From: a virus
Lineage: Duplodnaviria; Heunggongvirae; Uroviricota; Caudoviricetes
IMG/VR virus record: IMGVR_UViG_3300035394_000193
Direction: 5' to 3' (one strand)
Length of the DNA: 64,000 nucleotides
The position numbers were made by a program, and so were the translations under genes. Below the pieces are notes generated by a model. The model made no database searches. It saw only the letters and a program-made list of their open reading frames with translations, and had not been told where the DNA came from. This document shows positions 609-51,400 of the stretch, piece by piece (within the stretch, counting starts at the first letter, position 1; every line of letters begins with the position of its first letter).

Positions 609-1691
609 TTAAAATGATTTAAGGTTTTCGGATTTATCGCTATGACTAAGTAATACTTCAGAAAATCCTAAAGTAGTATTAATCATATCAATAAAATCAT
701 ATTCGCTTAGGGCTTGTATTAATTGCCCATTAATAGTCAATTGCCAATCGTGTTCTACGTGATCAAGACAAGTAATGACTAATACATCACGATGTTTGTT
801 TAGGTATTCGTCTTTACTAACAGCATATTGTAACAAATCTAAATCCAGAATGGATATTCTAAACTCACCTTGCCATTTGTTATACACATTTGTTTCAAGA
901 GGATTAGGTTTGATATTATGAATAAACTGTTCATTAGTCATTGGACCATTACCATGACGAGTTTGGTATGCTCTAGTTACTGCATAGCATTTAGGAGTAT
1001 ATCCCATTTCTAAGATATTTGTTGTTCCTACATTCGAGCGAGTAACATGTGGGAAGAATCCATAATGTTGGTCAAGAAGTAACCCTTGTGAACCTTCAAA
1101 GATATGTGATGGAACTGATGGCAAAACAGTGTACATTTTAATTCGAGCATGTGTAGTGATAAAGTCTATTGCTTTACGAAACTCAATATTATTAGCTGTA
1201 CAAAGATAAAATTCTTCCATTAAACCATATTTGATATCAAATACAGTTTTATTGAATAAATCTTCAAATAACAATGAATGATACGCTTCTTCTCTGCGTT
1301 TAGTGGAGCCTACACCTGTGCCACATGTTCCATTTTTTGCATCCATACTTTGATTATACTGCTTATCCAATGGAGTAGTTACTGGACATTTTGCATGGAT
1401 ATGCAAAATAGGACGAATTCCTTTCTGTTCCAATACTTTCAATTCATTATAGATACCAACAGGATCAACTGTACAATATTGTGACCAATAAGTCGGGGCT
1501 CCATTTAAAGAACCTGATCCAAAATTGGAAAAAATATGTCGAAGTTCATCTTTTACAACGGTATGACCTGCTTGTTGACCTCCTGAATATCGGATTATTG
1601 CAGCATTTGGATTTTGAAGAGAAAGGTAGTTTGTTACTAATCCTTTCCCTTCATCTCCAAATTCTATGCCTATTACAGCTTTTGCATTCAT
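609..1691 (-). CDS. adenylosuccinate synthetase family protein, short form (PurA/PurZ-like)
   Basis: 360 aa ORF carrying PurA signature motifs: GDEGKG P-loop near the N-terminus, GGQQAGHT (GGxNAGHT), GTCGTGVGS (GTTxxGIGP-like), FEGSQG (FEGAQG). It is about 70 aa shorter than bacterial PurA, as in the archaeal/viral PurZ-like clade. Confidence 0.8.
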   Translation of the reverse strand: MNAKAVIGIEFGDEGKGLVTNYLSLQNPNAAIIRYSGGQQAGHTVVKDELRHIFSNFGSGSLNGAPTYWSQYCTVDPVGIYNELKVLEQKGIRPILHIHAKCPVTTPLDKQYNQSMDAKNGTCGTGVGSTKRREEAYHSLLFEDLFNKTVFDIKYGLMEEFYLCTANNIEFRKAIDFITTHARIKMYTVLPSVPSHIFEGSQGLLLDQHYGFFPHVTRSNVGTTNILEMGYTPKCYAVTRAYQTRHGNGPMTNEQFIHNIKPNPLETNVYNKWQGEFRISILDLDLLQYAVSKDEYLNKHRDVLVITCLDHVEHDWQLTINGQLIQALSEYDFIDMINTTLGFSEVLLSHSDKSENLKSF

Positions 1692-3884: not shown

Positions 3885-3959
3885 AAGTGTAGGAGCGGGC
3901 TCGAACCGCTGACCTTTCTTACTTTCGTAAGACTGCTCTAACCTCCTGAGCTACCTATA
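3885..3959 (-). ncRNA. tRNA-like RNA with canonical acceptor, D- and T-arms but a GAAA-tetraloop hairpin in place of the anticodon arm
   Basis: Minus-strand sequence GTATAGG-TA-GCTCAGGAGGTTAGAGC-A-G-TCTTAC-GAAA-GTAAGA-AAGGTC-AGCGG-TTCGAGC-CCGCT-CCTACAC. The 7-bp acceptor has one mismatch, the D-loop AGGAGGTTA and the T-loop TTCGAGC are canonical, but the anticodon position is a 6-bp stem closed by a GAAA tetraloop (4- or 6-nt loop, no 7-nt anticodon loop). It lies directly 3' of motif copy 3965-3987. Confidence 0.5.
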
Positions 3960-4120
3960 CGGTCAAGAAGTAACTTACATATAGCCACTAAGTATTTGTT
4001 AAAAGAAAAGGAAATTTCGCACGTAAAGCTTAAACCCAAGATAAGTGCCCTAAGGGCGGAAGTAACGATACGAATAGCCTATTGTAAAATAAAGGAAATT
4101 GTACATCTAATTTTTACGAG

Positions 4121-6068: not shown

Positions 6069-6938
6069 TTATTTAAGGAGATAATCTTCTTTAATAAGAA
6101 GGTCTTTGATGAATTGTAAGTTCTTTTGGTAATCGGGAATTAAGTGATAACCATTACCTATTGCTAAATGATATAGATTGGCTAAAACTTTTCTTGCTTG
6201 ATACATTACGAACACAGTAAATGCAAGTTCGTCTTTATGATTTAGAATATACTTGACAACACGTGTGTTTGGTAAAAAGTTTTCATTCTTGATAATTTTA
6301 TCTAAGAACAAAAGATTCTTAACAAAAGCATAGTTTAAGTAATTCTCAACTTTTGGGTCAATGGTAGGATCAGATAATTCAGCAAAGTAAAGGAAAACGT
6401 GATCATTGGTGATGTTATTTTCTTTAAAAGTGCGCTCAATAATTCGTTCATGTGAACCGGTGATTTTGATATCATCCATCATGATTAAAAACTTTCTTTC
6501 TAAGAATGCTTTATCAATTTGGAATCCATCTTTGGAGATTAAGGCAAGGCGTTGTTCAGCGCTTAATTCTCCATAGTCTTCTTTATATGTATTGGTACGA
6601 TGAATTTTACTTAATTCTACGACTGGATAACCTATATCAACAAGATGTTGGTTAAGAAATTGTACGAAGTAATTACTCAACGACCAAGTAGCGGTTGGAA
6701 TGAAACAGTAGGGACTTGACATCACAACAAACTCACGATGATTCTGCTGCAAAATGTTTAAAAATACTTTACTATTAATGAACTTTCTGGCAAGTTCGTA
6801 GCCATATTTCCTGGCAATGTCTTTATCGCCAAACTTAAACTTGGAGTATTCTACAGGTAGAAATCCATACTTTAGTTGATCAAATTCAGTACTGTCAGTT
6901 TTCTTAATGATTTTATGCAGAGCAAATGTATATCTCAT
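6069..6938 (-). CDS. phosphoribosyltransferase (PRTase)-like protein of a Ter-associated biosynthetic module
   Basis: 289 aa; PRPP-binding-type motif FLIMMDDIKITGS (four hydrophobics, DD, x(I/V)TTG-like); overlaps the HAD gene start by 4 nt, so operonic. Confidence 0.6.
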   Translation of the reverse strand: MRYTFALHKIIKKTDSTEFDQLKYGFLPVEYSKFKFGDKDIARKYGYELARKFINSKVFLNILQQNHREFVVMSSPYCFIPTATWSLSNYFVQFLNQHLVDIGYPVVELSKIHRTNTYKEDYGELSAEQRLALISKDGFQIDKAFLERKFLIMMDDIKITGSHERIIERTFKENNITNDHVFLYFAELSDPTIDPKVENYLNYAFVKNLLFLDKIIKNENFLPNTRVVKYILNHKDELAFTVFVMYQARKVLANLYHLAIGNGYHLIPDYQKNLQFIKDLLIKEDYLLK

Positions 6939-7627
6939 TTGTAAACCTCCTTCACATAAGCAACAACATCCATAATTGTTTTATCATTAGAGTTGATGAT
7001 CATAGATTGCATCCCAATTTGAGTAGGACCAAAACCATCAGCTATTGGATTATCTCCAACATGTAGTATCTCTTTAGTTACAAATCGAGAGCGAGTTGTA
7101 ATGTATCCAAAAAATGCGGGGTTTGGTTTTGCTAATTCAATTTCATCAGAGAAGTATTCATCTACAAACATGAAATAAACCTTTTGTTTACGAAGTACTT
7201 CTCGAATGGTTTCACCTAGAATAAAACCTGTATTGGAACCAATAGTTAATACTGGAACTATATCAGATAATATATCAAGAGCCCGAAAAGTATTATCATC
7301 GTATAGACTTGGAGGATTTTCCAAGAATAAAGTTTGAAATTCATCAGAGATACTACTAAGAGTAGAATAATCAATCGGAGTTAATTCTTCATAACCCATC
7401 TCTAATAATAGAAAGGCAATCATTTGAAGGCTGTCAAAATGTAGTCCTTGTATTTCAACCAGACGCGTACATTGAATGTCTATCTTTCTCATCATTTTTG
7501 CTATTTCATATTCAGTTAACTTTTTAGGGTTATACTTTTGAAATAGCATGGCCGCTTTTGCTTTTTTGAAATCAGGATTTGATTTCAGCAACGTAAGCCA
7601 CACGTCAAAGGAAAGGTGGTTAATCAT
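6935..7627 (-). CDS. HAD-superfamily phosphatase-like protein
   Basis: 230 aa; N-terminal LSFDVWLTL resembling HAD motif I (hhhDxDxT, imperfect) and C-terminal HVGDNPIAD matching motif IV (GDxxxD). Confidence 0.55.
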   Translation of the reverse strand: MINHLSFDVWLTLLKSNPDFKKAKAAMLFQKYNPKKLTEYEIAKMMRKIDIQCTRLVEIQGLHFDSLQMIAFLLLEMGYEELTPIDYSTLSSISDEFQTLFLENPPSLYDDNTFRALDILSDIVPVLTIGSNTGFILGETIREVLRKQKVYFMFVDEYFSDEIELAKPNPAFFGYITTRSRFVTKEILHVGDNPIADGFGPTQIGMQSMIINSNDKTIMDVVAYVKEVYK

Positions 7628-7693: not shown

Positions 7694-8269
7694 CTACAAG
7701 AGGGTTTTGATTGTTTCGGCAATCTGGTTAATGTCACCATTGGCACCATTACCCATTGCTTCAAATTTCCACTCGCCGTTGTGACGGTAGAGTTGACCCA
7801 TAATCATACCGGTTTTTCCGGAATAGTCTTCAGACAGATCAAATTTGGCAAGTTCAGCAGCATTCGCAGGATTGAATACCCTCACAAAGGCATTACGAAC
7901 CTGACCAAAATGCTGTCTCCTGGCTTCGGCTTCATAAATGTTTACAATAACAACAATGCGATGTACGCCTGCGGGGACGGCAGTTAAATCAACATTGATT
8001 ACTTCATCGTCGCCATCACCGGCACCGGTAAGATTATCACCCTGATGGGTAACACCAAATTCTTTCAAATGACGGAAGTAAATAACACCCTTATTGCCTT
8101 CGTAAATTGACTTGTCTTCCTTTAAAAGGATAACAGTACTGTCAAGGTCAACAGCGGGTCCATCGGTTTTTACATCCCATCCACAGCCAATGGCTACTTG
8201 GGTAAGTCCTGGGTTTTCTTTGGTAATGTTTACTCTTTCTCCTTTTTCAAGGTTCAATGGATTGTTCAT
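7694..8269 (-). CDS. terD: TerD domain protein (tellurite resistance / stress protein family)
   Basis: 191 aa; the GDNLTGAGDGDDEVINVDL calcium-binding DGDD-type segment and overall pattern are characteristic of TerD/TerE/TerZ. Confidence 0.85.
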   Translation of the reverse strand: MNNPLNLEKGERVNITKENPGLTQVAIGCGWDVKTDGPAVDLDSTVILLKEDKSIYEGNKGVIYFRHLKEFGVTHQGDNLTGAGDGDDEVINVDLTAVPAGVHRIVVIVNIYEAEARRQHFGQVRNAFVRVFNPANAAELAKFDLSEDYSGKTGMIMGQLYRHNGEWKFEAMGNGANGDINQIAETIKTLL

Positions 8270-8328
8270 TTTGTTCTGTTGTTAATGTTTACTTTTTCTC
8301 CTTTTTCAAGAGCCAATGGATTTTCCAT
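8266..8328 (-). CDS. 20-codon upstream ORF created by tandem duplication of the terD 5' end; its stop overlaps the terD ATG
   Basis: 8287-8328 is a near copy of 8228-8269 (GTTTACT(C/T)TTTCTCCTTTTTCAAG...CAATGGATT...CAT). It reads MENPLALEKGEKVNINNRTK, against the TerD start MNNPLNLEKGERVNI; the uORF TGA (8266-8268) overlaps the TerD ATG (8267-8269) as ATGA. Confidence 0.4.
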   Translation of the reverse strand: MENPLALEKGEKVNINNRTK

Positions 8329-8375
8329 TTGTTTTGTTTTTAATTGTTAATTGATTTTATTGGGTAAGCGTGATT

Positions 8376-8690
8376 CTAAATTAAATTTTCCAATGGATAA
8401 GCATTTCGGATTGACTCCATATCAATTTCATACATGAAATCATCTGTGTTATCATTACATTGCATAACATGTGTTACATCAATATCCTGCGGCAATCGAA
8501 AATTGTGTACAGGTGAGCCTATCATTCGAACTTTTTCAATTATTGCCTCAACAGCTGCTTCAACATGAAGTTTAGCAAATGCTATGGCGACTTGTCCAGT
8601 ATCAGGAGGAATATTCTCTCCATAAGGATCAAATTCTAAACTTCCTCGACACTGAGTAATAAATTCTGATATTGTAGGTACTGTTTCCAT
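8376..8690 (-). CDS. hypothetical protein
   Basis: ORF track gives 8376-8723 from an alternative TTG start that lies inside a terminator hairpin; the first ATG is at 8690 (METVPTISEF...), giving about 104 aa. Confidence 0.45.
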   Translation of the reverse strand: METVPTISEFITQCRGSLEFDPYGENIPPDTGQVAIAFAKLHVEAAVEAIIEKVRMIGSPVHNFRLPQDIDVTHVMQCNDNTDDFMYEIDMESIRNAYPLENLI

Positions 8691-8711
8691 TGTTTCTAAG
8701 ATTAAATTAAA

Positions 8712-8748
8712 AACCTCCGCCAACTATTATTGTCAAGCGGCGGAGGTT
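8712..8748 (-). terminator. rho-independent terminator / attenuator hairpin
   Basis: AACCTCCGCC-N17-GGCGGAGGTT, a 10-bp GC-rich stem followed on the minus strand by TTTTTAATTT; it lies between the 703-aa gene and the ATG at 8690. Confidence 0.55.
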
Positions 8749-16259: not shown

Positions 16260-16622
16260 TCACCCCTGAGAAATTCTTATTTGTTTTTCCATCATAACAA
16301 CACGTTTTCTTAATAAATTTGCTAACTGATGTGTTGACATACAACTATAGATTTCAGAATAGTTGTTTGTAACACAAGGTGCAATGGCTTCTCCAGAATT
16401 AATGTCCCACATGCAGTATTTGCAGTAGCGAATACACTTAGTTTTGCGTTGAAATATTTCTGCAGCAACACATAAAGTACACGATTGAGTAGATCCAAAT
16501 CCTGTCCTTTTTTTTAAAAAAGAAAGAGCACCAATAAATAGGTCATATTGTGATTCAAGTTCCTCTGCTATGATTTCATAGTCTTGCTTTAATTTTACAA
16601 AAGCTTCTAAATTATTTTCCAT
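16260..16622 (-). CDS. hypothetical Cys-rich protein (stop codon is TGA)
   Basis: ORF track 16260-16757; the likely start is the ATG at 16622 (MENNLEAF...) immediately after the stop of the upstream gene. The Cys cluster CTLC...CIRYCKYC...C suggests metal binding. Confidence 0.45.
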   Translation of the reverse strand: MENNLEAFVKLKQDYEIIAEELESQYDLFIGALSFLKKRTGFGSTQSCTLCVAAEIFQRKTKCIRYCKYCMWDINSGEAIAPCVTNNYSEIYSCMSTHQLANLLRKRVVMMEKQIRISQG

Positions 16623-17034
16623 GACATTTTTTAAATTTAAGATTTGAACCACAATGACATAATTCGTTACGTCCAACTTTCGGAGCATCAAGTTCTGCTT
16701 GAGTTGCCACTCTTGCATACTTTGATTGCTTACTCGTTGGGTTAGGTAGATAATCACTTAAGATTGGAAGTTCACTTAATTCCTTTGATATTGATAGATA
16801 AGGATTAAGACTGTATGGTAATGTTACAGCAGGTGGATTTGGATTAAAACCTTCTGCATAAGCAAAAGATTTACCATCTTCTCCAACTTCACGCACAATA
16901 ATTTCAATGTCATGAGCTTTTGCAAGTGCCACAACATTAGCCATTATTTCTTCAGATGGTTTACCAACAACGATAATACGTTTATCTTTAGTTGTTGTTG
17001 GCAATTGTTCTTCAGTCGCTGTATATTTATCCAT
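16612..17034 (-). CDS. SEC-C motif domain protein
   Basis: 140 aa; C-terminus ELCHCGSNLKFKKCHGK matches the SEC-C metal-binding motif (CxCxSxxKxKxCH). Confidence 0.55.
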   Translation of the reverse strand: MDKYTATEEQLPTTTKDKRIIVVGKPSEEIMANVVALAKAHDIEIIVREVGEDGKSFAYAEGFNPNPPAVTLPYSLNPYLSISKELSELPILSDYLPNPTSKQSKYARVATQAELDAPKVGRNELCHCGSNLKFKKCHGK

Positions 17035-17944: not shown

Positions 17945-18019
17945 GAGTTCCTACGGGACTCGAACCCGTGCCTCGACCCGCTGAATGGGTCCGCTCTACC
18001 AACTGAGACGTAAAGAACT
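17945..18019 (-). tRNA. suppressor tRNA, anticodon UCA (reads UGA)
   Basis: Minus strand AGTTCTT-TA-CGTCTCAGTTGGTAGAGCG-GACCC-ATTCAGC-GGGTC-GAGGC-ACGGG-TTCGAGT-CCCGT-AGGAACT-C. Anticodon stem GACCC/GGGTC closes the 7-nt loop A-T-TCA-G-C, so positions 34-36 are TCA. T-arm and D-loop are canonical; the D-stem has one mismatch; the variable loop is short (not Sec-like). Confidence 0.7.
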
Positions 18020-18417: not shown

Positions 18418-18837
18418 TTAAGAATTAGGATAAATCCGTTTAACAATTATTGCGCCTTCGTTGTACAAATCAAACACGCTGTCAAAATGTGAGATTTCTT
18501 CTTCACAACTTGAATGCCTAGTCCAACCCATTAATTGAGCTATTGCAGATGCACCTTGTTGTATTCTTAAGGCATCACTGAACGAATCAGTTGTAAATGT
18601 AGTTTCACTGTTTTTATAAACATGAATGTCTACAGTGAACTTTTTAAGCTCTATTACCGTCTTTGTAAAGACAATGAAGTCATATTGTTCTTCAATCTCA
18701 CGTACTGTTAAAGCAACTTGAAACGGAATCACAATACTTGATGTTCCGTTTATGAACTCAACCACGAAGGGAGTTAAACTAAGGACACGATGTGATGTTG
18801 CACTCATTTTATTTGTTTTTAGGGATTGGTTTAACAT
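18418..18837 (-). CDS. hypothetical protein
   Basis: 139 aa ORF. Confidence 0.5.
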   Translation of the reverse strand: MLNQSLKTNKMSATSHRVLSLTPFVVEFINGTSSIVIPFQVALTVREIEEQYDFIVFTKTVIELKKFTVDIHVYKNSETTFTTDSFSDALRIQQGASAIAQLMGWTRHSSCEEEISHFDSVFDLYNEGAIIVKRIYPNS

Positions 18838-19632: not shown

Positions 19633-20356
19633 TATTTCTAGGTTTTTATAGGTTTGACCTGATATTATTATATCAACGCACTAGACTTAACAATGTTTAT
19701 ACTCTTCTAGTAGAGTCGAACAAATAAGGCAATCAAAGGATTACTCCCTTGACTGCCTATTCATTCATTTCATAAAGCCTGAGTTTGGTACAACTTTACA
19801 ATAACAGTGTTGCTTCTTTGAAGCGGCTCCATAGTGTCCCACCATTACCGATTGATTTTTTGACAAACCAATAAACTTTCCTCGTAATATACTCTTTGAG
19901 ACGGCTAACCTCATACCCTTTATTACGTCTTCATTGCATCACGATATTATGCAACTAAATCTGCTATGCTGATTAGTATTCGGAAAATCTTTTCACACTT
20001 TTGCCATATAGGATTTAGACAATCAAACATGTGTATTTTTAAAGTCTTAGACTTACAGACTCAATCATAAAAATAAGCCACGCATCCGAAGCTTTGGTGC
20101 TCCGGAAATCCCAATCGCCAATATCATTAATTTGTAACAATGATTCAAACCCTACAGACTTAACCTGCTCAATCCTGGGCTGTGACAGTTATTTTTGAAT
20201 CATTATTACATTTTAAATAACCCAATAAATCCGTATATCCTTCTCAACGGACTCCACCTCATTCGGATAAGCTCTAGCTTAGAGGAATAGAATGGGTTTT
20301 AATAAAAGATTCACCCTCACCACTATTACTAGTGTATATTGGGTGAACCTAGATCA

Positions 20357-21560: not shown

Positions 21561-22157
21561 TTATTTGGCAGGTGGTGTTACCAATGTGAAAACGTGGTAA
21601 GTTTTCGGTTCGGTATTAGCCAATAGCTTTTCCTTTGCTTCTGCAATGGTTAATTCGGCAGGTGCAAACATTTTATCGGCTTCGTACTTTTTCAATGCTT
21701 TGCCAGGAAATTTAACTGTTTTGAATGATTTTCCTTTAAGGGCAAATAAACGCTTGTCTTGGCTGTTTTCAGAGTACAACGACTCACTTATTCTTGTTTG
21801 TTTCAGCATATATTTGCCAGCGTTCTTTACTGATTTAACCTTTACAGGTTCGTCGGTAACGGTTTGTGCGAATATTGTATTTTCGCTAACGTGCAAAGCT
21901 GTTTTTTCGTCCTTGCCTAAATAATAACCAATAGAATAACGAGTAATTTCTATCCCGTTTTCATCTTTTAGTTTGTATTCCTTTTCCCCGATATGGTCAA
22001 AAGTGCCCTCTTCAGGAACAGAATTAAATTCGGTTGCGGCGTTTGCTACCTTTTCAGCGATTTTATCTTCGCTGAGCCCATTGGCTTCGCCTACCTTTGC
22101 GCGTAATGCGCTCAAATCTTCGATTTTGTTAACTTTAATTTTGTCAGATGTTGCCAT
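21561..22157 (-). CDS. hypothetical protein, first gene of the minus-strand block
   Basis: 198 aa ORF starting next to the divergent control region. Confidence 0.55.
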   Translation of the reverse strand: MATSDKIKVNKIEDLSALRAKVGEANGLSEDKIAEKVANAATEFNSVPEEGTFDHIGEKEYKLKDENGIEITRYSIGYYLGKDEKTALHVSENTIFAQTVTDEPVKVKSVKNAGKYMLKQTRISESLYSENSQDKRLFALKGKSFKTVKFPGKALKKYEADKMFAPAELTIAEAKEKLLANTEPKTYHVFTLVTPPAK

Positions 22158-22263
22158 TTTTTTTGTTTTTTATTGGTTTGAAGTCTGAAAAACTTTGTGC
22201 CTTTCTCGCCCCTTAAGGCTGGAGGGAACAAAGGAAACAGGACTCACATTTATAACATAAAAA

Positions 22264-22310
22264 CAAAAATTTTTCCCAAAAAATTTTTCAAAAATTTTTA
22301 AAATTTTTTT
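22264..22310. repeat. phased A5-6/T5-6 tracts (AAAAATTTTT x4)
   Basis: caaaaatttttcccaaaaaatttttcaaaaatttttaaaattttttt: alternating oligo-A and oligo-T runs with roughly 10-11 bp phasing, predicted to bend DNA. Confidence 0.6.
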
Positions 22311-22428
22311 CAGAAACACCTTTGTAATACCTTATTTTATAAATTGGATATTATGAAAGTCGCGCTAGCCCATTGACAGCATTATGTATAGTAAAAGATT
22401 AAGTATATATTAAGTATAGTATGTCACT

Positions 22429-22501
22429 AAATTTGACGAAAATCATACTAAATCTGACTTGGGCTTCCACTAATTTTGACAAAAATCATACTAAATTTGA
22501 C
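22429..22501. repeat. two 29-nt direct repeats (iteron-like) upstream of the Rep-like gene
   Basis: AATTTGACGAAAATCATACTAAATCTGAC (22429-22457) and AATTTTGACAAAAATCATACTAAATTTGAC (22472-22501), about 43 bp apart; each contains a TTGAC-N17-TGAC sub-repeat. Confidence 0.55.
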
Positions 22502-22560
22502 GTAGATACACCTCAGTCTCGAATTTTATAATTTAACATTTTTTAACATATCATATACAA

Positions 22561-22588
22561 TTTGTTTGAACAATTTTGTGTATCTTTG
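22561..22588 (+). promoter_or_regulatory. Bacteroidetes-type promoter (-33 TTTG, -7 TATCTTTG)
   Basis: tttgtttgaacaattttgtgTATCTTTGtt immediately upstream of ATG 22607; matches the TTTG / TAnnTTTG consensus of Bacteroidetes sigma-AB promoters. Confidence 0.45.
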
Positions 22589-22606
22589 TTATTCAAATTT
22601 TATCAA

Positions 22607-23353
22607 ATGGAACATAGTAGCAAACAACATATACAAGTACCAAATTCTGTTAGTACTCCAAATTTTAAACAAGATGGAAGAACAACAAGAAAAGAATATA
22701 ATGATTTGAATGTCTATGCTCAAATCAAGAAATTTATGAACAGTCAAACTAAAATGGCAATAGTGAGTATTGCTAGATTAGCAAAAGATTGTGAAATGTC
22801 AAATCAAGGAGTTGTAAATGCCATTAAAAGATTAGAGGATTGTGGAGATATAAATAAAACTAAAGTCGGAAAATGTAATGCTTATAAATTCAATACTAAA
22901 TCAGAGAAATTTGAAATGTATGATTATGAATTTTTAAAGAATAAAGATTTAACAACACAGCAAAAAGCATTTATGATAGCAGTTCAAAAACATTTATTTG
23001 TAGATAAAGATACAGGAGTTGCTAAAACAACTTATTCAGATAAAGAGTTATCCGAAAAAACAGGAATATCCGAATCTACTATTTATAGACGAGTATCCGA
23101 GTTGATTGATAGTAACTTTATAAGTAAAAGACTTACATCAGATAATGATGGTAATCCTACTGAAGCTTTAGAATTTAATTTACCAAAATTCGGACAGTTT
23201 GTATTATGCAAAATAGAACAACATGATATCATAATTGCTCAACAGCAAATGGAAATTAATAAGATGAAATATGAATTAGAGATGGTAAAGAAATATTTAA
23301 AAGCAACTTCTATTGATTTAGCAACAATGGATGATGAAGAAATTGAATTATAA
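22607..23353 (+). CDS. Rep-like DNA-binding protein with two winged-helix (wHTH) domains
   Basis: The ORF track starts at 22562; the first ATG is 22607. wHTH-like segments MAIVSIARLAKDCEMSNQGVVNAIKRLEDCGDI and LSEKTGISESTIYRRVSELIDSNFI, with a C-terminal coiled coil. The two-wHTH architecture plus upstream iterons fits a replication initiator. Confidence 0.5.
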   Translation: MEHSSKQHIQVPNSVSTPNFKQDGRTTRKEYNDLNVYAQIKKFMNSQTKMAIVSIARLAKDCEMSNQGVVNAIKRLEDCGDINKTKVGKCNAYKFNTKSEKFEMYDYEFLKNKDLTTQQKAFMIAVQKHLFVDKDTGVAKTTYSDKELSEKTGISESTIYRRVSELIDSNFISKRLTSDNDGNPTEALEFNLPKFGQFVLCKIEQHDIIIAQQQMEINKMKYELEMVKKYLKATSIDLATMDDEEIEL

Positions 23354-25342: not shown

Positions 25343-25369
25343 TTTGTACAAAAAATCTTCTTATCTTTG
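25343..25369 (+). promoter_or_regulatory. Bacteroidetes-type promoter (-33 TTTG, -7 TATCTTTG)
   Basis: ttTTTGtacaaaaaatcttctTATCTTTGtaacatcaaaatataaATG; the same -7 octamer as at 22581. Confidence 0.5.
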
Positions 25370-25392
25370 TAACATCAAAATATAAATGAATT

Positions 25393-25605
25393 ATGGAAAA
25401 AATATTAGAGAAATTCGGATATAAAACCGGAGAATTTGACAATGAATGGATTAAAGATATATGGACTATTAGATTTTTTACAGACGGAGTCGAGATTTTT
25501 AATACTCCAAGAATAAATACACCTGGAGAGTATTACAAGACTGCATTTATGGATAAAGAACTGTTAGAAATAGTTTTATTAGAAATAGAAAATAAAATAA
25601 AATAA
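25393..25605 (+). CDS. hypothetical protein
   Basis: 70 aa ORF whose 3' end runs into the (AAAAT)n repeat. Confidence 0.45.
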   Translation: MEKILEKFGYKTGEFDNEWIKDIWTIRFFTDGVEIFNTPRINTPGEYYKTAFMDKELLEIVLLEIENKIK

Positions 25606-25627
25606 AATAAAATAAAATAAAATAAAT
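25589..25627. repeat. (AAAAT)x7 pentanucleotide tandem repeat
   Basis: aaaataaaataaaataaaataaaataaaataaaataaat immediately 5' of the suppressor tRNA. Confidence 0.85.
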
Positions 25628-25631
25628 ACCA

Positions 25632-25703
25632 CGGTTCTTAGTGTAATGGCAGCACATTAGTCTTCAAAACTAATAGGTGAGGGTTCGAGTCCTTCAGAGC
25701 CGG
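25632..25703 (+). tRNA. suppressor tRNA, anticodon UCA, tRNA-Trp-like
   Basis: CGGTTCT-TA-GTGT-AATGGCA-GCAC-A-TTAGT-CTTCAAA-ACTAA-TAGGT-GAGGG-TTCGAGT-CCTTC-AGAGCCG-G. The 7-bp acceptor has one G-U pair; the anticodon loop C-T-TCA-A-A puts TCA at 34-36 with A37, i.e. the tRNA-Trp loop CUCCAAA with C35 changed to U; T-loop TTCGAGT. Confidence 0.75.
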
Positions 25704-25707
25704 CAAA

Positions 25708-25935
25708 GTGAAAATGAAAATGAAAATAAAAATGAAAATGAAAATGAAGAAAACAATTAGGGAAATAGAAGGTGAGATATTGGAATTATCTCATGAATTA
25801 AATGGAATACTTTTAAATTATGTAAACCATAACGATTTTATTATGGATGGCAGAGATTATTATAAAATAACTCGCATTTCACATCGTCTTATAACATTAA
25901 TTGATTTAATGGATTATAAAAAAATATTTGAGTAA
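25708..25935 (+). CDS. hypothetical protein (real start probably downstream of the repeat-encoded MKMK tract)
   Basis: 75 aa ORF. Confidence 0.35.
   Translation: MKMKMKIKMKMKMKKTIREIEGEILELSHELNGILLNYVNHNDFIMDGRDYYKITRISHRLITLIDLMDYKKIFE
25710..25745. repeat. (GAAAAT)x6 hexanucleotide tandem repeat
   Basis: gaaaatgaaaatgaaaataaaaatgaaaatgaaaat immediately 3' of the suppressor tRNA; it encodes the MKMKMKIKMKMK N-terminus of ORF 25708. Confidence 0.85.
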
Positions 25936-26191: not shown

Positions 26192-26225
26192 AAACCCACG
26201 CAGTATTGTAGTGGGTTTTTCCATT
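26192..26225 (+). terminator. rho-independent terminator
   Basis: AAACCCAC-N11-GTGGGTTTTTCCATTT. Confidence 0.65.
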
Positions 26226-26275: not shown

Positions 26276-26962
26276 ATGGGAAACAAGAAAGACAGACCAA
26301 GATTACCAGAGCAGCACTCAAGACTAGTTTACAACTTTAGAGCTAAGAGTGCGAAACAACAAGAGTTAATAGATATGATTGAAGAACAAGAGATAGTGGT
26401 TGCAACAGGACCAGCAGGTACAGGTAAAACATATGTAACTTTAGCTACAGCGCTGTCTTTATTAGGACAAGTGTATAGAAAAGTAATATTAGTAAAATCT
26501 GTAACTCCTATTCCTGGTGAAGAGATAGGATTTCTTAAAGGAGGAATGGAACAAAAAATGGAACCGTTCGTAATGTCCTACATGTGGAATATAGATAAAA
26601 TCTGCGGACCAGATTCATCAAAAGATTTGCTTAATAAGAAAATGATAGAGATATTACCGTTAGCTTTTATAAGAGGATTATCTATTGATAATTCAATAGT
26701 AATTATTGACGAAGCACAAAATATAGATAACCATACGTTTAAAACAATAATGACAAGAATCGGAGAAAACTCCAAATATATTTTCTTAGGTGATACTGAG
26801 CAAATAGATAGGAAACATAAAACCGAATCATGTTTAGCAACTGTTTTAGAAATATTTTCAGATTCAGACTTAATTGGAACTATAGAATTTACAGACGAAG
26901 ACTGTGTAAGAAATCCTATTATTCCAAAGATATTAGCAAAATTAAGAAGTAATAACATTTAG
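26276..26962 (+). CDS. phoH: PhoH-like ATPase
   Basis: 228 aa; Walker A VVATGPAGTGKTYVTLA, Walker B IIDEAQN; typical PhoH size and order of motifs; stop TAG. Confidence 0.85.
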   Translation: MGNKKDRPRLPEQHSRLVYNFRAKSAKQQELIDMIEEQEIVVATGPAGTGKTYVTLATALSLLGQVYRKVILVKSVTPIPGEEIGFLKGGMEQKMEPFVMSYMWNIDKICGPDSSKDLLNKKMIEILPLAFIRGLSIDNSIVIIDEAQNIDNHTFKTIMTRIGENSKYIFLGDTEQIDRKHKTESCLATVLEIFSDSDLIGTIEFTDEDCVRNPIIPKILAKLRSNNI

Positions 26963-27364
26963 TTATAAAGAATTGGTATTTTACTTCCCAATTCAAATGT
27001 ATAATAATTTAGCAAATATAATTAATAATGAATTTAAAAATTAAGATATTTTATAAAAATTGTGTTTTATTCCAAAATTTATAAATACCTTTGTAAAAAT
27101 TTAAAACAAACCTAAAATTAAAAAGTTTAAATCAGTATGGCAGATGTATTAAAATTAATAACTTATATTATTGTTAATCATGGATATTGAGCGGCATTTG
27201 CCTTTGTATCAGTTAGTTCGATCCCACTTCTGGCTGGGGCTTACTTATTATCTTCTAAGAATGTATTAAGTAAAATTATTGATAGAAAGTTTTCTGAAAA
27301 AGAAGAAGAAGAAAAAGCTAATCATAAACATGGTAACAGACTTAGAAAACAATTTACTGAAGAA

Positions 27365-27865
27365 GTGCAGGAAATACTTAGTAATTTAGCTGAAGAAACA
27401 AAAGCTAATAGAGCAATTATTTTTGAGTTTTCTAACGGAACTACAAATCTCGTAGGACTTCCATTTTTGTTTATGACTGCAACTAATGAAGTTGCAACTC
27501 CAGGATTACCTTTAATGAGTCAAAGACATGAACGTTTAAATACTGCAATGGTGGCTCCATTTTTAACAAGGTTAGAAAGAGATGGATTCATTTTTATTGA
27601 CCGCACTGGGCCAATACCCCCAGATTGCAGAGTATTGGAACAAGTAATGGAACGAGCAGATATTGAAAGTGTTTTATTCTATTCAATTCAGGGTGTTGAC
27701 GAAGCCATTGGATTTTTAGCTATTGTAACAACCCGATCATCCTATAATATTTTAGAATATCCAGCAATTTTACCATTAGTAAGTAGGGCAGCACAAAGAA
27801 TTGGTTCAATGATCAATTATGATGAGATAGATGAAAGAGAAAAAGAAAAGAAAAAATTTAAATGA
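27365..27865 (+). CDS. hypothetical protein (GTG start in the ORF track; real start uncertain)
   Basis: 166 aa ORF; an in-frame TGA 69 nt upstream (27296) could extend it if read through. Confidence 0.45.
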   Translation: MQEILSNLAEETKANRAIIFEFSNGTTNLVGLPFLFMTATNEVATPGLPLMSQRHERLNTAMVAPFLTRLERDGFIFIDRTGPIPPDCRVLEQVMERADIESVLFYSIQGVDEAIGFLAIVTTRSSYNILEYPAILPLVSRAAQRIGSMINYDEIDEREKEKKKFK

Positions 27866-28788
27866 TGGTGACAAATGTAATTGATTATGATCAACTCCTA
27901 GTAGATAAAGAAAATGAAGTAGTTAAATATAATGATGAACTCCATAAATACTGGGTTAAAGAATCTAATCAATCCTGCATTTCGGTTACAACTCTTATTC
28001 ATCAGTTTACTGTATTTGATGAAGATTTTTGGTCTTCCTATAAAGCATTAGAAAGTTTAATAGGTGAAGATAATTTTAAAAGTGTAAAACCCGATTTGTT
28101 AAATTTTAAACAATTCAACCAAACTTACCTTGATAGAACAGGCGTTGCTTTAGACGCCTTTTCTACAAGGAAGCAGGAAATCCTTGAGGACTGACGAGAA
28201 AAGCGAGAAGCTTCTTGTATTAGAGGAACTGCAATTCATAGACAGCATGAGTTAGAACATCTTGCTGGTAAAACAAAAGAATTACAACATTTAGGTTTAG
28301 GTGGTTCATTTTCTACCAAGACTTCAAATAAAATAGAACCAGGACGTGGAATATATCCTGAATTACTTTTATCTAGAATATCACCTGATGGAAAACTTAG
28401 ATTGGCAGGACAAGCTGATTTAGTTATCATAGATGGATTTGATGTATACATTCTAGACTATAAAACTAATAAAAAGATTGATATGAAAGCATATTTCGAT
28501 AGAAAAACTAAAAAACATTCTATGATGAAGTATCCTCTTAACAATATACAAGATACTAATTTTTGGCATTATAGCATACAGTTATCTACTTACGCATGGA
28601 TGATTCAAAAGATTGATCCTAGATTCAATATTAAAGCGCTTATTTTATTACATTATGATCATGATGGAAATAATGCAACTTATGAATGTGAGTATTTAAA
28701 AACTGAAGTAGAAAGAATGCTAACTTTTCATAAACAACAAATTGAACACAATGAATTTAAGCAATCAAGAGAAAAAATTATTTTTTAG
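27862..28788 (+). CDS. PD-(D/E)XK family nuclease; first gene containing an in-frame TGA (28192-28194)
   Basis: ORF-track fragments 27862-28194 and 28402-28788 are in the same frame with no TAA/TAG between them. The merged protein has the motifs GTAIHRQHE ... LVIIDGFDVYILDYKTNKK (D ... D-x-x-x-D-Y-K) typical of Cas4/RecB-like PD-(D/E)XK nucleases. Confidence 0.6.
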
Positions 28789-31675: not shown

Positions 31676-33874
31676 ATGGCTAATACTTTTACTTGAGATG
31701 TTCCTTTGGGACAACCTATTGAGTATTTTGATATTGAACAATCTTTTGAATTAACTGGGTTTAGACCAATAAATGATACTCAAGGATTAGATTTTAATCC
31801 AAATTGATTTAGAGAAGACGCTCTTAATAAATTAAAAACAGGCCGATATAGTCCATCGTCTATTCCTATAGGTTCAAAGACTCATGTAGATTGATGAAGA
31901 GAAAGAATTGATAGATGTAATAATGGATATACTGTAAATGGATATAGAATAACAGGAGATAATTATTTCTTTCTTAATTTCTATAATCTTAAATCTTCGG
32001 ATTTTGAGACTATAAATCAAACTTATGGATTTCCAGAATTTTTAGTTTTTCAATATGAATATTTTCATTATTTGGAAATGTGTGAAAAATTAAAGAAAGA
32101 TACATCTGTATTAAAATCTCGTGGTATTGGATTTTCTGAAATGGCTTCTTCATTTATAGTAAGACCATATACAACTATTCCAAACTTTAGATCTGTTGTT
32201 TCTGCTTTTTCAAAAAACCATTTAACTCCAACTCTTAGTAAGATTTGGTTACAAATGGATTGATTAAATGAAAACACAGAAGGAGCTTTGCGAAGAGTTC
32301 GCATGAATATAAATACGGCTACACATAAAAGAGCATCTAAAAAAGATAAAGATGGAAGTGAATCAGGACATCGTTCAGAAGTTGAAGGACTTGTTTGCGA
32401 TGAAGTTGATAAACTTAGGGGAGATAGAACTCAAATTTTAATCTACGAAGAAGCAGGTGCGGATACAGTTTTATTAAAGAAATGAGTTAAAGGCGAAGCT
32501 TTAATTTCTGTACTTGGAGGTAAAAGAGTTGGACGACGTATTGCTTTTGGAACTGGAGGTTCCTCTAAAGCAAGTTCAATGCAAGGATTAAAGAAAATGA
32601 CCTTAAATCCACAAGCATATAATATTTTACCTGTTAGACATAATTTTACTCAAGATGGAAAATATATTATCTCTGGATTATTTATTCCTGCTTATAGAAT
32701 TGTTTATGAGCTTATTGATAGTCGAGGATGATGTAATGTTGGAAAAGCTAAAGAATATTATTTAAAAGAACGATCAAAATTAATTGATGAACCAAAAGAT
32801 TTATTAGAATATAAATCTGAATATTGTTTTACAATTGAAGAGGCTTTAATTCAACATTCAGACAATTTATTTCCGGTCGAGGAAATAGCAGAACAATTAG
32901 CACATATTGATATTTATAAAGATATTCCATTACCTAAAGCTGGATTTTTAACATGAGCAATTGATGAAAATACTAAAATGAGGAATGGAAAAGTAAAATG
33001 ACGTGAAGATCCTGATGGAAATATATTAATAGCAGAACATCCTATAATGTCTGAAGAAGGCACGGATTATAACAATTTATATGTTGGAGGAATTGACTCA
33101 ATTGATATTGGAGCAACAGACTCTGCACAATCTAAAAAAGCAAATGAAACTGTATCTTCAGAATTTTGTATTGTTATTAAGAAAAGAATTTTAGGATTAC
33201 AAGATCCAAAATATGTTGCAATGTATAAAGACAGACCTAGAGACCCTAGAGAAGCTTATGAAAATGCAGCAAAACTACTTACTTATTATTATGCGAAAGC
33301 TGTCTTAGAATCTACAAGAACTACTATTACTACTTATTTTAGAGATCATAAATATTTATCTTTATTAATGAAACGTCCAAGAGCAACTATGCCTGATATT
33401 TCAAAAGGTAATTCAAATATGTATGGTACTCCTGCTACTGTTAAAGTAATTGAACATTATAGAGAATTAATCTATGATTTTTGTTTAGATTATTGTTATA
33501 CAATATCGTTTAGAGAAATATTAGATCAATTACTAAACTACTCTGATGAAGACAAAAAGAAATTTGATATTGTTGCAGCTATGGGAATGTGTGAATTAGC
33601 AGATGAGGAATTATCAGTTAAAAAACCAGAAGCAAGAGAACCACAAGGTAAAAAATTCCAAGATATTGGATGATGAACTGATAATAAGGGATACAAACAT
33701 TATGGAGTAATTCCGCAAACAAGAGAAGAGAAAAATGATATGACTAGAAAAAATAGGGATGAAACATGAATTAATAATGAACCTAAATCTGAATTTTGGG
33801 AAAATACACCTCATTATAGAAAATTTTCACAAGAAGAATGAGCAACTTATAACGCATTAAAAGAACCTAAATAA
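31676..33874 (+). CDS. terL: terminase large subunit-like protein, recoded (about 10 in-frame TGA)
   Basis: 732 aa after merging ORF fragments 32072, 32288, 33047 (all in the same frame mod 3). LVCDEVDKL Walker-B-like segment; C-terminal RNase-H-like nuclease pattern YVGGIDSIDIGATDSAQ; size and position typical of TerL. Confidence 0.65.
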
Positions 33875-49969: not shown

Positions 49970-51400
49970 ATGATAGTAGCAAGTTACGTCAACGTAAAGC
50001 CAGAAATGGCACACAGTAGAACATATGAAGATTTCTATAAATTTTTGGGAACAAGACCAAAAATGATGGGAGTTATGGCAAGAATGAACACTCAGAACAC
50101 TGCCACCTTCTTAACAGAAGCTTTAATGAACATCTATTACAATTCTAAAACAGCCAACAAATTTCAACCTATCAATTCTTTAATGATTGAATGAGAAATT
50201 GACGTTGAGTTCGTTAAAAAAGTAGAATTTGCCGCAGCACCAGTAGGAACTGGAGCAATCGGTTCAGATATTATTGTATATTTCAAAGAAAGATATTATG
50301 AAAAATACGATACAATTAAAATTGATGCTTCGCGTCAGCAATTAATTGTAAAAACAACACCACAAAGAAAAGCAGATAATTTTTGGGAATATACAGTTCA
50401 ATTAATTGATGCTGATTATTCTTCAGTATTAGATTCTTCAGCATGTCAGTTAGGAATGACAACTCGTTTCTTAGCTAACATTATGCCAGAATACCACGAA
50501 GAAGGATTCACCAAATATCAATCAAACATTGAGAAACATCGTCAATGGATTACTGAACACAGAAATGACATCAGCTATTCTGCACGTTATGCTCAAATGG
50601 AAGATCAATTCATTAAAATCGCACAAGGCGAAGGCACTGGTGAATTAAAAGAAAAAATCTTCAAATTAAACAAAATGGAAAAAGATCTTTTAGATGCTTT
50701 CCAAACTGTTAAAAACAATGCTCTTCTATGGCAAAAAACCACTATGGATGTTAACGGAAAATCAACTGTTCTTACAGAAGATGGTCGTCCATTAGTAGCT
50801 GGTGATGGTCTTATCCCACAAATTGAAAGATTTGCTTCTAAATTTAAATATGCTAAATTAAATGTTAACTTGATTAACACTGTAATGGAGCAAATGAATC
50901 AAAAAGCAATCAATGCAACTGGTAATCATTACACATTTGTTGTTAATGATAGACTATGGAGCCAAATTAATACCACTCTTGGTGACTGGTTAAAATTATG
51001 GGGTTCAACTCCAACAATGCTTTATTCAAAAGCTTCACAAAGTTTAGTTAAAGCTGACAATCCAATGAAAGTTGGTGGAACTTTTGTTAGTTATGAAATT
51101 TCTGGTAACACAGTATCTTTCATGGTAGACCGTGCTTTATCAAAAGAGTATGGAAACAAAGGTTATGGTATTTGTTTAGACATGACTCCTGATATGTCAA
51201 CTAATCAGCCTGCTATTGCTGCATTCACACTTCAAGGTGCTGAATTCGTAACTAGCAAATATCCTGGTGTTGGTGGTGTAGATGGTGTTACTAGCGGTAT
51301 CGTTAGCTCACCTGTAGCTGGATCAAAATTAATCGTTGCAGGTTACAGTGGAATCGCTGCATTTGCTCCGTATAAATCATTTATCGTTGAAGAGATATAA
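49970..51400 (+). CDS. major capsid protein candidate, recoded (TGA at 50192)
   Basis: 476 aa from ORF fragments 49970 and 50456 in the same frame; codon usage of a highly expressed gene; follows the scaffold-like gene and is followed by a strong terminator; no named motif. Confidence 0.5.

Follow-up and report, generated by a model that had tools for sequence, protein, structure and literature searches.

The virus record IMGVR_UViG_3300035394_000193 of IMG/VR (Duplodnaviria; Heunggongvirae; Uroviricota; Caudoviricetes) is represented here by a stretch of 64,000 nucleotides (nt), referred to as the window, which carries a 72-nt tRNA gene with a UCA anticodon between two A-rich microsatellites. 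The results presented here indicate that this tRNA is a tRNA-Trp-derived opal suppressor that reads UGA as tryptophan, and that the microsatellites are young slippage expansions beside it. The probability of this explanation as a whole, including the origin of the repeats, is estimated at 0.78. The window belongs to a distant, environmental crAss-like phage that uses genetic code 4 in part of its genome. A first-pass annotation, made by a model from the sequence letters, had already described a Trp-like UGA suppressor embedded between A-rich repeats, and several of its claims are revised below.

Structure and identity of the UCA tRNA

ARAGORN calls a tRNA with anticodon tca at 25632-25704 on the forward strand, one of three tRNA-like calls in the window, and the Rfam model RF00005 covers 25632-25703 from end to end (63.3 bits, E 2.2e-11; gathering score 29). 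Minimum-energy folding gives a clean cloverleaf for the tRNA alone and also within a 221-nt context in which the two flanks remain unpaired. The acceptor, D and T stems have 7, 4 and 5 bp, respectively, and the variable loop is short. The anticodon loop CTTCAAA (25662-25668) contains TCA at 25664-25666 together with U33 and A37, the discriminator is G73 (25703), and CCA is not encoded, the DNA continuing instead with CAAAGTG. Position, loop, anticodon and A37 are thus as first described.

The nearest annotated phage tRNAs are Enterococcus phage tRNA-Trp(cca), with 82.5% identity over 63 nt. In the alignment, the Enterococcus phage tRNA-Trp(cca) reads GTCTCCAAAAC where the window and all eight relatives read TCTTCAAAA. 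The difference from the tRNA-Trp loop is a C-to-U change at position 34, the first (wobble) base of the anticodon, and not at the middle base as the first-pass annotation had it. The UCA anticodon would therefore stem from C34-to-U with U33, A37 and G73 kept, in a tRNA borne by a virus whose host presumably reads UGA as stop. Across the nine sequences (window and eight relatives), compensatory changes are found in 14 of the 22 stem pairs, with the loop CUUCAAA and G73 invariant, which is the pattern of purifying selection on what appears to be a working tRNA. A search of IMG/VR with the exact 72-nt sequence returned no match.

Tryptophan at in-frame UGA codons

Genes in the window run leftward up to about 22.2 kb and rightward beyond, and the minimum of the cumulative GC skew lies at the switch. 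When TGA is taken as a sense codon, the share of the right arm covered by open frames of at least 100 codons rises from 0.77 to 0.93, and the longest right-arm frame grows from 927 to 1451 codons. Of the 31 rightward genes that begin at 27137 or later, 23 have in-frame TGA, with 73 TGA codons beside 59 TGG. The eight rightward genes at 22.5-27 kb, which include the neighbours of the tRNA, have no TGA and nine TGG. Genes of the leftward arm likewise hold no in-frame TGA; their 28 stops comprise 22 TAA, 4 TAG and 2 TGA.

The meaning of TGA was examined by aligning the window proteins to the DNA of relatives. These came from JGI, ENA and Logan metagenome assemblies, with contigs up to 172-213 kb, and were located from the PhoH-like gene (26276-26962), from exact-protein look-ups of the small neighbouring open reading frames (ORFs) and from homologues of these. 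Among 72 aligned TGA positions, 51 face either TGG (27) or TGA (24), and the remainder face mostly Tyr or Phe codons. Because TGA faces TGG in the relatives, it is read here as Trp; as judged from these alignments, TGA is tryptophan in the recoded genes. This interchange, together with the similarity of the tRNA to tRNA-Trp and the invariant loop and G73, identifies the tRNA as a probable Trp-derived opal suppressor, in agreement with the Trp-like UGA decoder first proposed. At the level of sequence, everything expected of a phage opal suppressor tRNA is present, namely the cloverleaf, the UCA loop, the G73 and Trp derivation, and in-frame TGA at Trp positions.

The recoded set includes portal-size, capsid and tail-size genes, and the gene at 31676-33874 alone has 13 TGA. 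Recoding begins already in DNA-metabolism genes, for example a PD-(D/E)XK-like gene at 27862-28788. The tRNA had been placed just upstream of the first recoded gene. It does lie ahead of the recoded genes, but the first TGA (27188) is 1.5 kb further on, with three unrecoded genes between, and belongs to the next transcription unit.

The idea that TGA is wholly unused as a stop was ruled out, given that two of the 28 leftward ORFs end in it. These two, 6935-7627 and 16260-16757 (both on the reverse strand), are the sole leftward ORFs of at least 80 amino acids that do so. An active suppressor would lengthen them by 20 and 12 codons, respectively; the former has an ATGA overlap with the next gene.

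The assignment to crAss-like phages is based on the capsid gene at 49970-51400, which, when read in code 4, matches the Pfam family Crass_capsid (PF23898) with 52.7 bits against a cut-off of 27. The window thus encodes the crAss-type major capsid protein by which Crassvirales-like phages are recognised. No other crAss hallmark gene was matched in Pfam or PHROG scans of the window proteins, and most of the other large window proteins had no match in PHROGs or Pfam. The lineage derives from a peat or wetland metagenome, and its host is probably a member of the Bacteroidota that uses the standard code. Neither a tryptophanyl-tRNA synthetase (TrpRS) gene nor a release-factor gene was seen among the window proteins tested.

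A short standard-code unit around the tRNA

The tRNA appears to be part of a short standard-code unit that would comprise a promoter-like box, a small conserved ORF of 70 amino acids (ORF70), the tRNA, a second small ORF, a putative helix-turn-helix (HTH) gene and a terminator-like hairpin at 26192-26222 (Table 1). The order of ORF70 homologue, Trp-like tRNA(UCA), HTH gene and PhoH gene is kept in all informative relatives (L018-20, L023, L024-27, L028 and IMG/VR loci). Homologues of ORF70 lie directly upstream of the tRNA in L023 (88% amino acid identity), L024 (58%), L018 (35%, E 1e-10) and L028; a protein-pattern scan of IMG/VR with ORF70 found no relatives. The HTH gene is 58% identical to its L018 homologue and follows the tRNA in L010, L009, L024, L028, L174 and L179; its only Pfam match is a weak HTH below cut-off. 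The small ORF at 25708-25935 has no Pfam match. Scans of a metagenome collection with a 33-mer of the HTH gene and with the 3' half of the tRNA gave no match, and that collection evidently lacks samples that hold close relatives.

Table 1. Elements of the suppressor tRNA locus and related features, with positions in the window.
Feature	Position	Strand	Basis or remark
Second, atypical UCA tRNA	17945..18019	-	ARAGORN; Rfam 37.9 bits; leftward standard-code arm
Conserved promoter-like block TTTGTACAAAAAATCTTCTTATCTTTGTA, with Bacteroidota-type -7 box TAtcTTTG	25343..25371	+	Conservation; promoter activity inferred
Small conserved ORF (ORF70), 70 amino acids, function without assignment	25393..25605	+	Homologues; end and TAA inside 5' array
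5' microsatellite (AAAAT)x7.6	25589..25626		TRF score 76, 100% matches
Probable tRNA-Trp-derived opal suppressor tRNA, 72 nt	25632..25703	+	ARAGORN, Rfam, folds, relatives
3' microsatellite (AAAATG)x7.3, that is, six GAAAAT units, one of them the variant AAAAAT	25705..25748		TRF score 74, 92% matches
Small ORF, 75 amino acids from GTG 25708 (62 from ATG 25744)	25708..25935	+	Homologue P0123
Small putative HTH gene, 59 amino acids	25935..26114	+	Downstream partner of tRNA slot
Terminator-like hairpin AAACCCAC-(11 nt)-GTGGGTTTTT	26192..26222	+	Read from sequence; function inferred
Second box TAccTTTGTA, 42 nt upstream of first recoded gene	27086..27095	+	Motif
First gene with in-frame TGA (27188)	27137..27880	+	Read from sequence

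The conserved block upstream of ORF70 reads TTTTGTACAAAAAAT...TAtCTTTGTA. Its box TA.CTTTGT does not vary among four relatives in which the identity of the adjacent ORF is no more than 35-88%, and L028 has the box as well. The block is likely to be the promoter of the unit of ORF70, tRNA, small ORF and HTH gene. A copy of the box on the other strand lies ahead of a LysM gene (25169), and at the far end of the unit a clearer terminator occupies the same place in L024. In L024, a mere 6 nt separate the stop of the upstream ORF from the tRNA, too few for a separate tRNA promoter. Most likely, to judge from this arrangement, the tRNA is co-transcribed with its neighbours and excised from the mRNA. 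The host RNase P and 3' processing enzymes would cut it out and CCA would be added, after which the host TrpRS would charge it with Trp. The charged tRNA would then decode the 73 in-frame UGA codons of the rightward genes.

The two microsatellites

The A-rich arrays noted at first on both sides of the tRNA were recovered by TRF and exceed by far what chance would produce; no other long microsatellite occurs in the 64 kb. Of the four perfect short-unit repeats of at least 18 nt in the window, three flank the tRNA, and only about 1 in 200 third-order Markov simulations of the window held any such repeat. The whole region, arrays included, is identical in L017, which is an independent JGI assembly, and the arrays are therefore no assembly artefact.

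The arrays are not shared by most relatives. The tRNA stands without adjacent repeats in L024-27, L028, L001/2/4/7, L009/11 and L010. The 5' array is absent from L024, L028, L018 and the IMG/VR relatives and is otherwise found only in L023, with 5.6 copies compared to 7.6 in the window; copy number does vary between these lineages. The Logan contigs L012, L013 and L015 break inside the arrays and yield no copy numbers. Among 37 further IMG/VR loci with a Trp-like tRNA(UCA), 17 short perfect repeats were found, none within 80 nt of the tRNA. Since most relatives lack the arrays, these are not part of the conserved apparatus; they are recent, lineage-specific and not required for the suppressor.

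The repeats were said to encode the MKMKMKIKMKMK N-terminus of the next ORF, and this holds for the 3' array only; the 5' array instead contains the last codons of ORF70 and its TAA stop. The one clear homologue of the downstream small ORF (P0123, 61 amino acids, 65% identity) begins MTVKQIEG, has no MK stretch and occupies the same position in L028. The tRNA trailer of L028, homologous to the stretch of the 3' array, reads aaaataaataaatgaatatgaatATG. Compared to L028, the window 3' array is a 22-nt insertion of repeat units, and the in-frame window start nearest the ATG of L028 is ATG 25744. Given that P0123 lacks the MK stretch and that the window has gained these units, the MKMKMKIKMKMK ladder is, on this comparison, best read as trailer and start-region sequence that expanded in frame and free of stops, and not as an ancestral N-terminus.

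The small-ORF cluster also contains a 71-amino-acid form (P0126) that starts MKIKMKMKMKK, two residues shorter than the 73-amino-acid call of the window lineage, on two long contigs of up to 146,516 nt. This form is consistent with a 3' array one unit shorter; it may also reflect another start call, and one copy is a contig-end truncation.

It seems likely that the arrays arose by slippage in the AT-rich sequences on either side of the tRNA, its leader and its trailer. The 3' (GAAAAT)n array would have grown from the trailer and start of the small ORF; being hexameric and stop-free, it would add an optional AUG-AAA ladder ahead of the ancestral start. The arrays would act at most as unstructured spacers around the tRNA.

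Repeats nevertheless recur at this slot. In L018-20 the corresponding position, which there lies between the tRNA and an HNH gene, has another hexamer array, (TGTAAG)4.8. In the window and 11 non-redundant loci (164 kb), nine short perfect repeats were found, five of them no more than 30 nt from the slot tRNA. This suggests that the flanks of the slot are locally repeat-prone, in a comparison weakened by ascertainment, through the choice of the window, and by the shared ancestry of the 5' array.

Exchange of the tRNA cassette and an HNH element in relatives

To the right of the 5' array, the window has one tRNA (type A) and the small ORF, and L023 has another (type B, 63% identical to type A) and an HNH-like endonuclease gene with in-frame TGA. 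L023 overlaps L016 and L014 at 100% identity. The homology of L014 and L016 to the window resumes exactly at 25934, at the start of the HTH gene, with 96.5% and 91.3% identity. Close lineages have thus exchanged a segment that lies between the 5' array on one side and the HTH start on the other.

An HNH-like gene stands directly after the suppressor tRNA in L014 (1-377), L016 (1-434), L023 (1177-1541) and L018 (4001-4549), at the position of the small ORF in the window. The copy tested scored 18.3 bits against HNH_3, below the cut-off of 24.8, and some homologues have a precomputed PF13392 match. L014 and L016 show no mismatch over 643 nt that span the end of the HNH gene, the HTH gene and little beyond, compared to about 110 mismatches (roughly 10%) in the next 1,050 nt. 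Such a pattern would be left by a homing element that has spread recently and co-converted its flanks. Close genomes among the relatives thus differ in whether they have the element, and its sequence is the same in diverged backgrounds, as with homing-endonuclease cassettes. A fixed tie of the type-B tRNA to the HNH gene, in which the two would form a pair of target and immunity, was ruled out, as L028 has a type-B-like tRNA with a small ORF and no HNH gene.

Alternative explanations

The tRNA might insert something other than Trp, either as a selenocysteine tRNA or charged with another amino acid, which is very improbable. ARAGORN does label it tRNA-SeC, but this is the default name for a tca anticodon and reflects the anticodon only. 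At 72 nt, with a 7-bp acceptor, a short variable loop and a D stem of 4 bp, it lacks the long variable arm, the extended acceptor and T stack and the 6-bp D stem that mark tRNA-Sec. Its closest annotated counterparts are tRNA-Trp(cca), and TGA swaps with TGG and aromatic codons. In favour of another amino acid, a published tRNAscan analysis of a zeta crAss-like tRNA-SUP-TCA could not separate Trp from Arg (PMC12386605).

Other readings concern the repeats. The first-pass annotation suggested an UP-element-like or bent-DNA context for a very strong tRNA promoter, and it is hard to see the 5' array in such a role. A TAAAAT resembling the -10 hexamer recurs every 5 nt in the array, and two sigma-70-like matches lie at 25580-25613, but such matches in the region are at chance (35 compared to 35.1 expected), which makes the scan uninformative. 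The array ends 5 nt before the mature 5' end of the tRNA, too close to be the -40 to -60 block of a core promoter; between the two there is no Bacteroidota -7 box (TAnnTTTG); and A-tracts that recur every 5 or 6 bp do not keep the helical phase needed for bending. The array is also absent from most relatives, including L024 with its 6-nt gap, and the conserved promoter-like box is upstream of ORF70. The proposal thus fails on position, motif content, conservation and helical phasing. An acquisition scar, left when the tRNA or its cassette was inserted into or between pre-existing A-rich repeats, was also proposed and is unlikely, if less so. The 5' array sits exactly where the homology of the window and L023 ends, with different tRNAs to its right, the units AAAAT and AAAATG are one base apart, and the slot is a hot spot for the HNH element. 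However, every relative with the slot has the tRNA, mostly without repeats, and none was found with the repeats and without the tRNA; the tRNA is thus the older occupant and the repeats came later. A short proto-form of the 3' array, moreover, occurs in L028; the array is an internal expansion instead of a duplicated target site, and the two arrays are not direct repeats of one another. What stands of the scar is that the 5' array marks the left breakpoint of the cassette exchange with the lineage of L023, L016 and L014.

A slightly better, still unlikely, account is that the arrays are selected as unstructured insulators or as nuclease entry sites that speed tRNA release, with the AUG ladder securing translation of a downstream ORF that cleavage would leave almost leaderless, and copy number tuning suppressor dosage. 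The unpaired flanks and the cloverleaf formed in context would fit, as would the recurrence of repeats beside the slot tRNA in three lineages, the 5.6 and 7.6 copies, and the 71-amino-acid form on two long contigs. A-rich contexts that lack a Shine-Dalgarno sequence are reported to favour initiation in Bacteroidota (PMC6847099). However, relatives without arrays keep the same tRNA and the same recoding, the 221-nt region folds no better than shuffled sequence (z = +0.34), and the shorter ORF is open to the other explanations given above. A bolder and less probable version, which lies between the scar and the promoter in likelihood, holds that the tRNA flanks are an unstable hot spot where HNH breaks and heavy transcript processing spawn (AAAAT)n, (GAAAAT)n and (TGTAAG)n, and where copy number tunes the release of the suppressor tRNA. 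If true, unstable flanks would act as a contingency-like dial that determines when, or how strongly, the phage changes from standard code to code 4.

Several observations weigh against the favoured explanation, that is, a Trp-derived suppressor with young slippage repeats. Charging with Trp, presumably by the host TrpRS, rests on G73, the similarity to tRNA-Trp and the codon interchange. The first pair of the tRNA is C1-G72, while most relatives have G-U or A-U. The second UCA tRNA at 17945-18019 could share or take over the decoding of UGA. The promoter and terminator assignments are at the level of motifs, and TAnnTTTGTA shows no genome-wide enrichment (13 found compared to 10.9 expected). 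Finally, repeats adjoin the slot tRNA in three lineages (window, L023 and L018), a hint, weakened by the way the window was selected, that the flanks gain repeats more readily than neutral slippage alone would predict.

Relation to known systems

Code-4 phages with Trp-type TGA suppressor tRNAs, and with standard-code 'code change' modules upstream of the recoded genes, have been published, as have mixed-code genomes whose early genes use the standard code (bioRxiv 10.1101/2021.08.26.457843; PMC12386605). The co-transcribed standard-code tRNA unit described here matches such a 'code change' unit placed ahead of recoded genes. Like the known code-4 phages (crAss-like, Agate, Jade and the zeta crAss-like Lera), the window is that of an AT-rich phage with a Trp-type UCA tRNA and TGA nearly absent as a stop. 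The division of the genome is also alike, with replication-side genes in standard code, structural genes with in-frame TGA, and the tRNA in a standard-code unit ahead of them. Unlike those phages, the window represents an environmental lineage distantly related to gut crAss phages, in which most proteins have no PHROG hit, and its recoding starts in DNA-metabolism genes. Microsatellite flanks are not mentioned in the code-4 phage papers searched, in which the term 'tandem repeat' was not found.

The HNH element of the relatives resembles the free-standing homing endonucleases of phage tRNA regions, for example SegB of T4/T6 (PMC2330249; PMC13096335), in that an endonuclease gene lies beside a tRNA and is present or absent between near-identical genomes. 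It differs in being HNH-like instead of GIY-YIG and in being absent from the window, and its cleavage and homing are putative. Bacterial simple-sequence contingency loci, that is, phase-variable microsatellites, are similar: they too have arrays of short units where a gene begins or ends, and copy numbers that differ from one close lineage to another. In the window, however, the hexamer stays in frame and the pentamer reaches TAA in every register, so that a change in copy number switches no protein and affects no promoter spacing.

The locus adds an environmental, distantly crAss-like lineage to the phages known to read UGA as Trp by means of a tRNA of their own, and it reveals no new mechanism. 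What is new lies in the details: two exchangeable tRNA alleles, an HNH element beside the tRNA, and the microsatellites. The local anatomy is laid out here as a conserved slot in a small operon, with interchangeable suppressor alleles, an HNH gene that comes and goes, and repeats at the tRNA boundaries. For annotation, windows of this kind need code 4, and the MK-repeat 'N-terminus' is probably not a real ORF start. The locus also offers a concrete place to test the timing of the code switch.

Other unusual tRNAs

The second UCA tRNA of the window may be a second UGA reader. It has the anticodon loop AUUCAGC (A32, G37), two extra bases before the D stem, discriminator C73 and 57% GC. Compared to annotated phage tRNAs it has no clear isotype, with weak matches to Asp, Lys and Ile. 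A protein-pattern scan of IMG/VR with the protein of 18418-18837 found no relatives. The remaining ARAGORN call, 'tRNA-???' at 3886-3960 on the reverse strand, has normal acceptor (one A-C mismatch), D and T arms, and a 6-bp stem with a GAAA tetraloop replaces its anticodon arm, so that it has no anticodon. Its Rfam score falls short of the gathering score, and nothing in the phage collection matches it.

A tRNA-core pattern search of related IMG/VR loci (L149-L185) yielded 34 Trp-like tRNA(UCA) genes, 23 of which are long (93-97 nt). Together with a similar tRNA in L006 (L006:3490-3582), these form 21 distinct long sequences, for example L161:737-832 and L163:8971-9066. A looser pattern, TCTTCAAAAN{12,24}GTTCGA, returned mostly chance matches, with 2 tRNAs in 119 loci. 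Most minimum-energy folds of the long tRNAs show an extra 5-bp hairpin at the position of the variable arm, after the UCA anticodon arm. The 7-nt loop of this hairpin is CUCCAAA in 10 of the 21 and GUCCAAA in 2, the ordinary anticodon loop of tRNA-Trp(CCA); its stem sequences differ between loci, and the tRNA of the window lacks the extra arm. The hairpin could be an anticodon-arm mimic that preserves recognition by TrpRS. A text search of the literature returned no description of an extra Trp-anticodon-like hairpin in tRNA(UCA).

Additional features of the window

The region at 22157-22502 combines the strand switch and GC-skew minimum with a cluster of AT-rich tandem repeats, including a 21-nt unit present 3.6 times at 22426-22502. 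The gene beside it (22562-23353) encodes HTH_36/DnaD_N-like domains, and together the two look like a replication origin with iterons and an initiator.

In the leftward arm, the gene at 609-1691 (reverse strand) encodes a divergent protein of the adenylosuccinate synthase family (PHROG 1211, E 3.8e-55), whose matches to the NCBIfam PurA models and the PurZ model are all far below cut-offs. It could be a PurZ-like modified-adenine enzyme or merely a relative of PurA. Nearby genes encode a ComF-like phosphoribosyltransferase (6069-6938) and a HAD hydrolase (6935-7627). Between two small leftward ORFs, at 19653-19716 on the reverse strand, the Pistol self-cleaving ribozyme model (RF02679) is matched with 38.8 bits (gathering score 34.5). 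The strongest tandem repeat of the window is at 8216-8344 (59-nt unit, 2.2 copies, TRF score 179); it overlaps the leftward ORF 7694-8269 at its start, as well as the spacer ahead of ORF 8376-8723.

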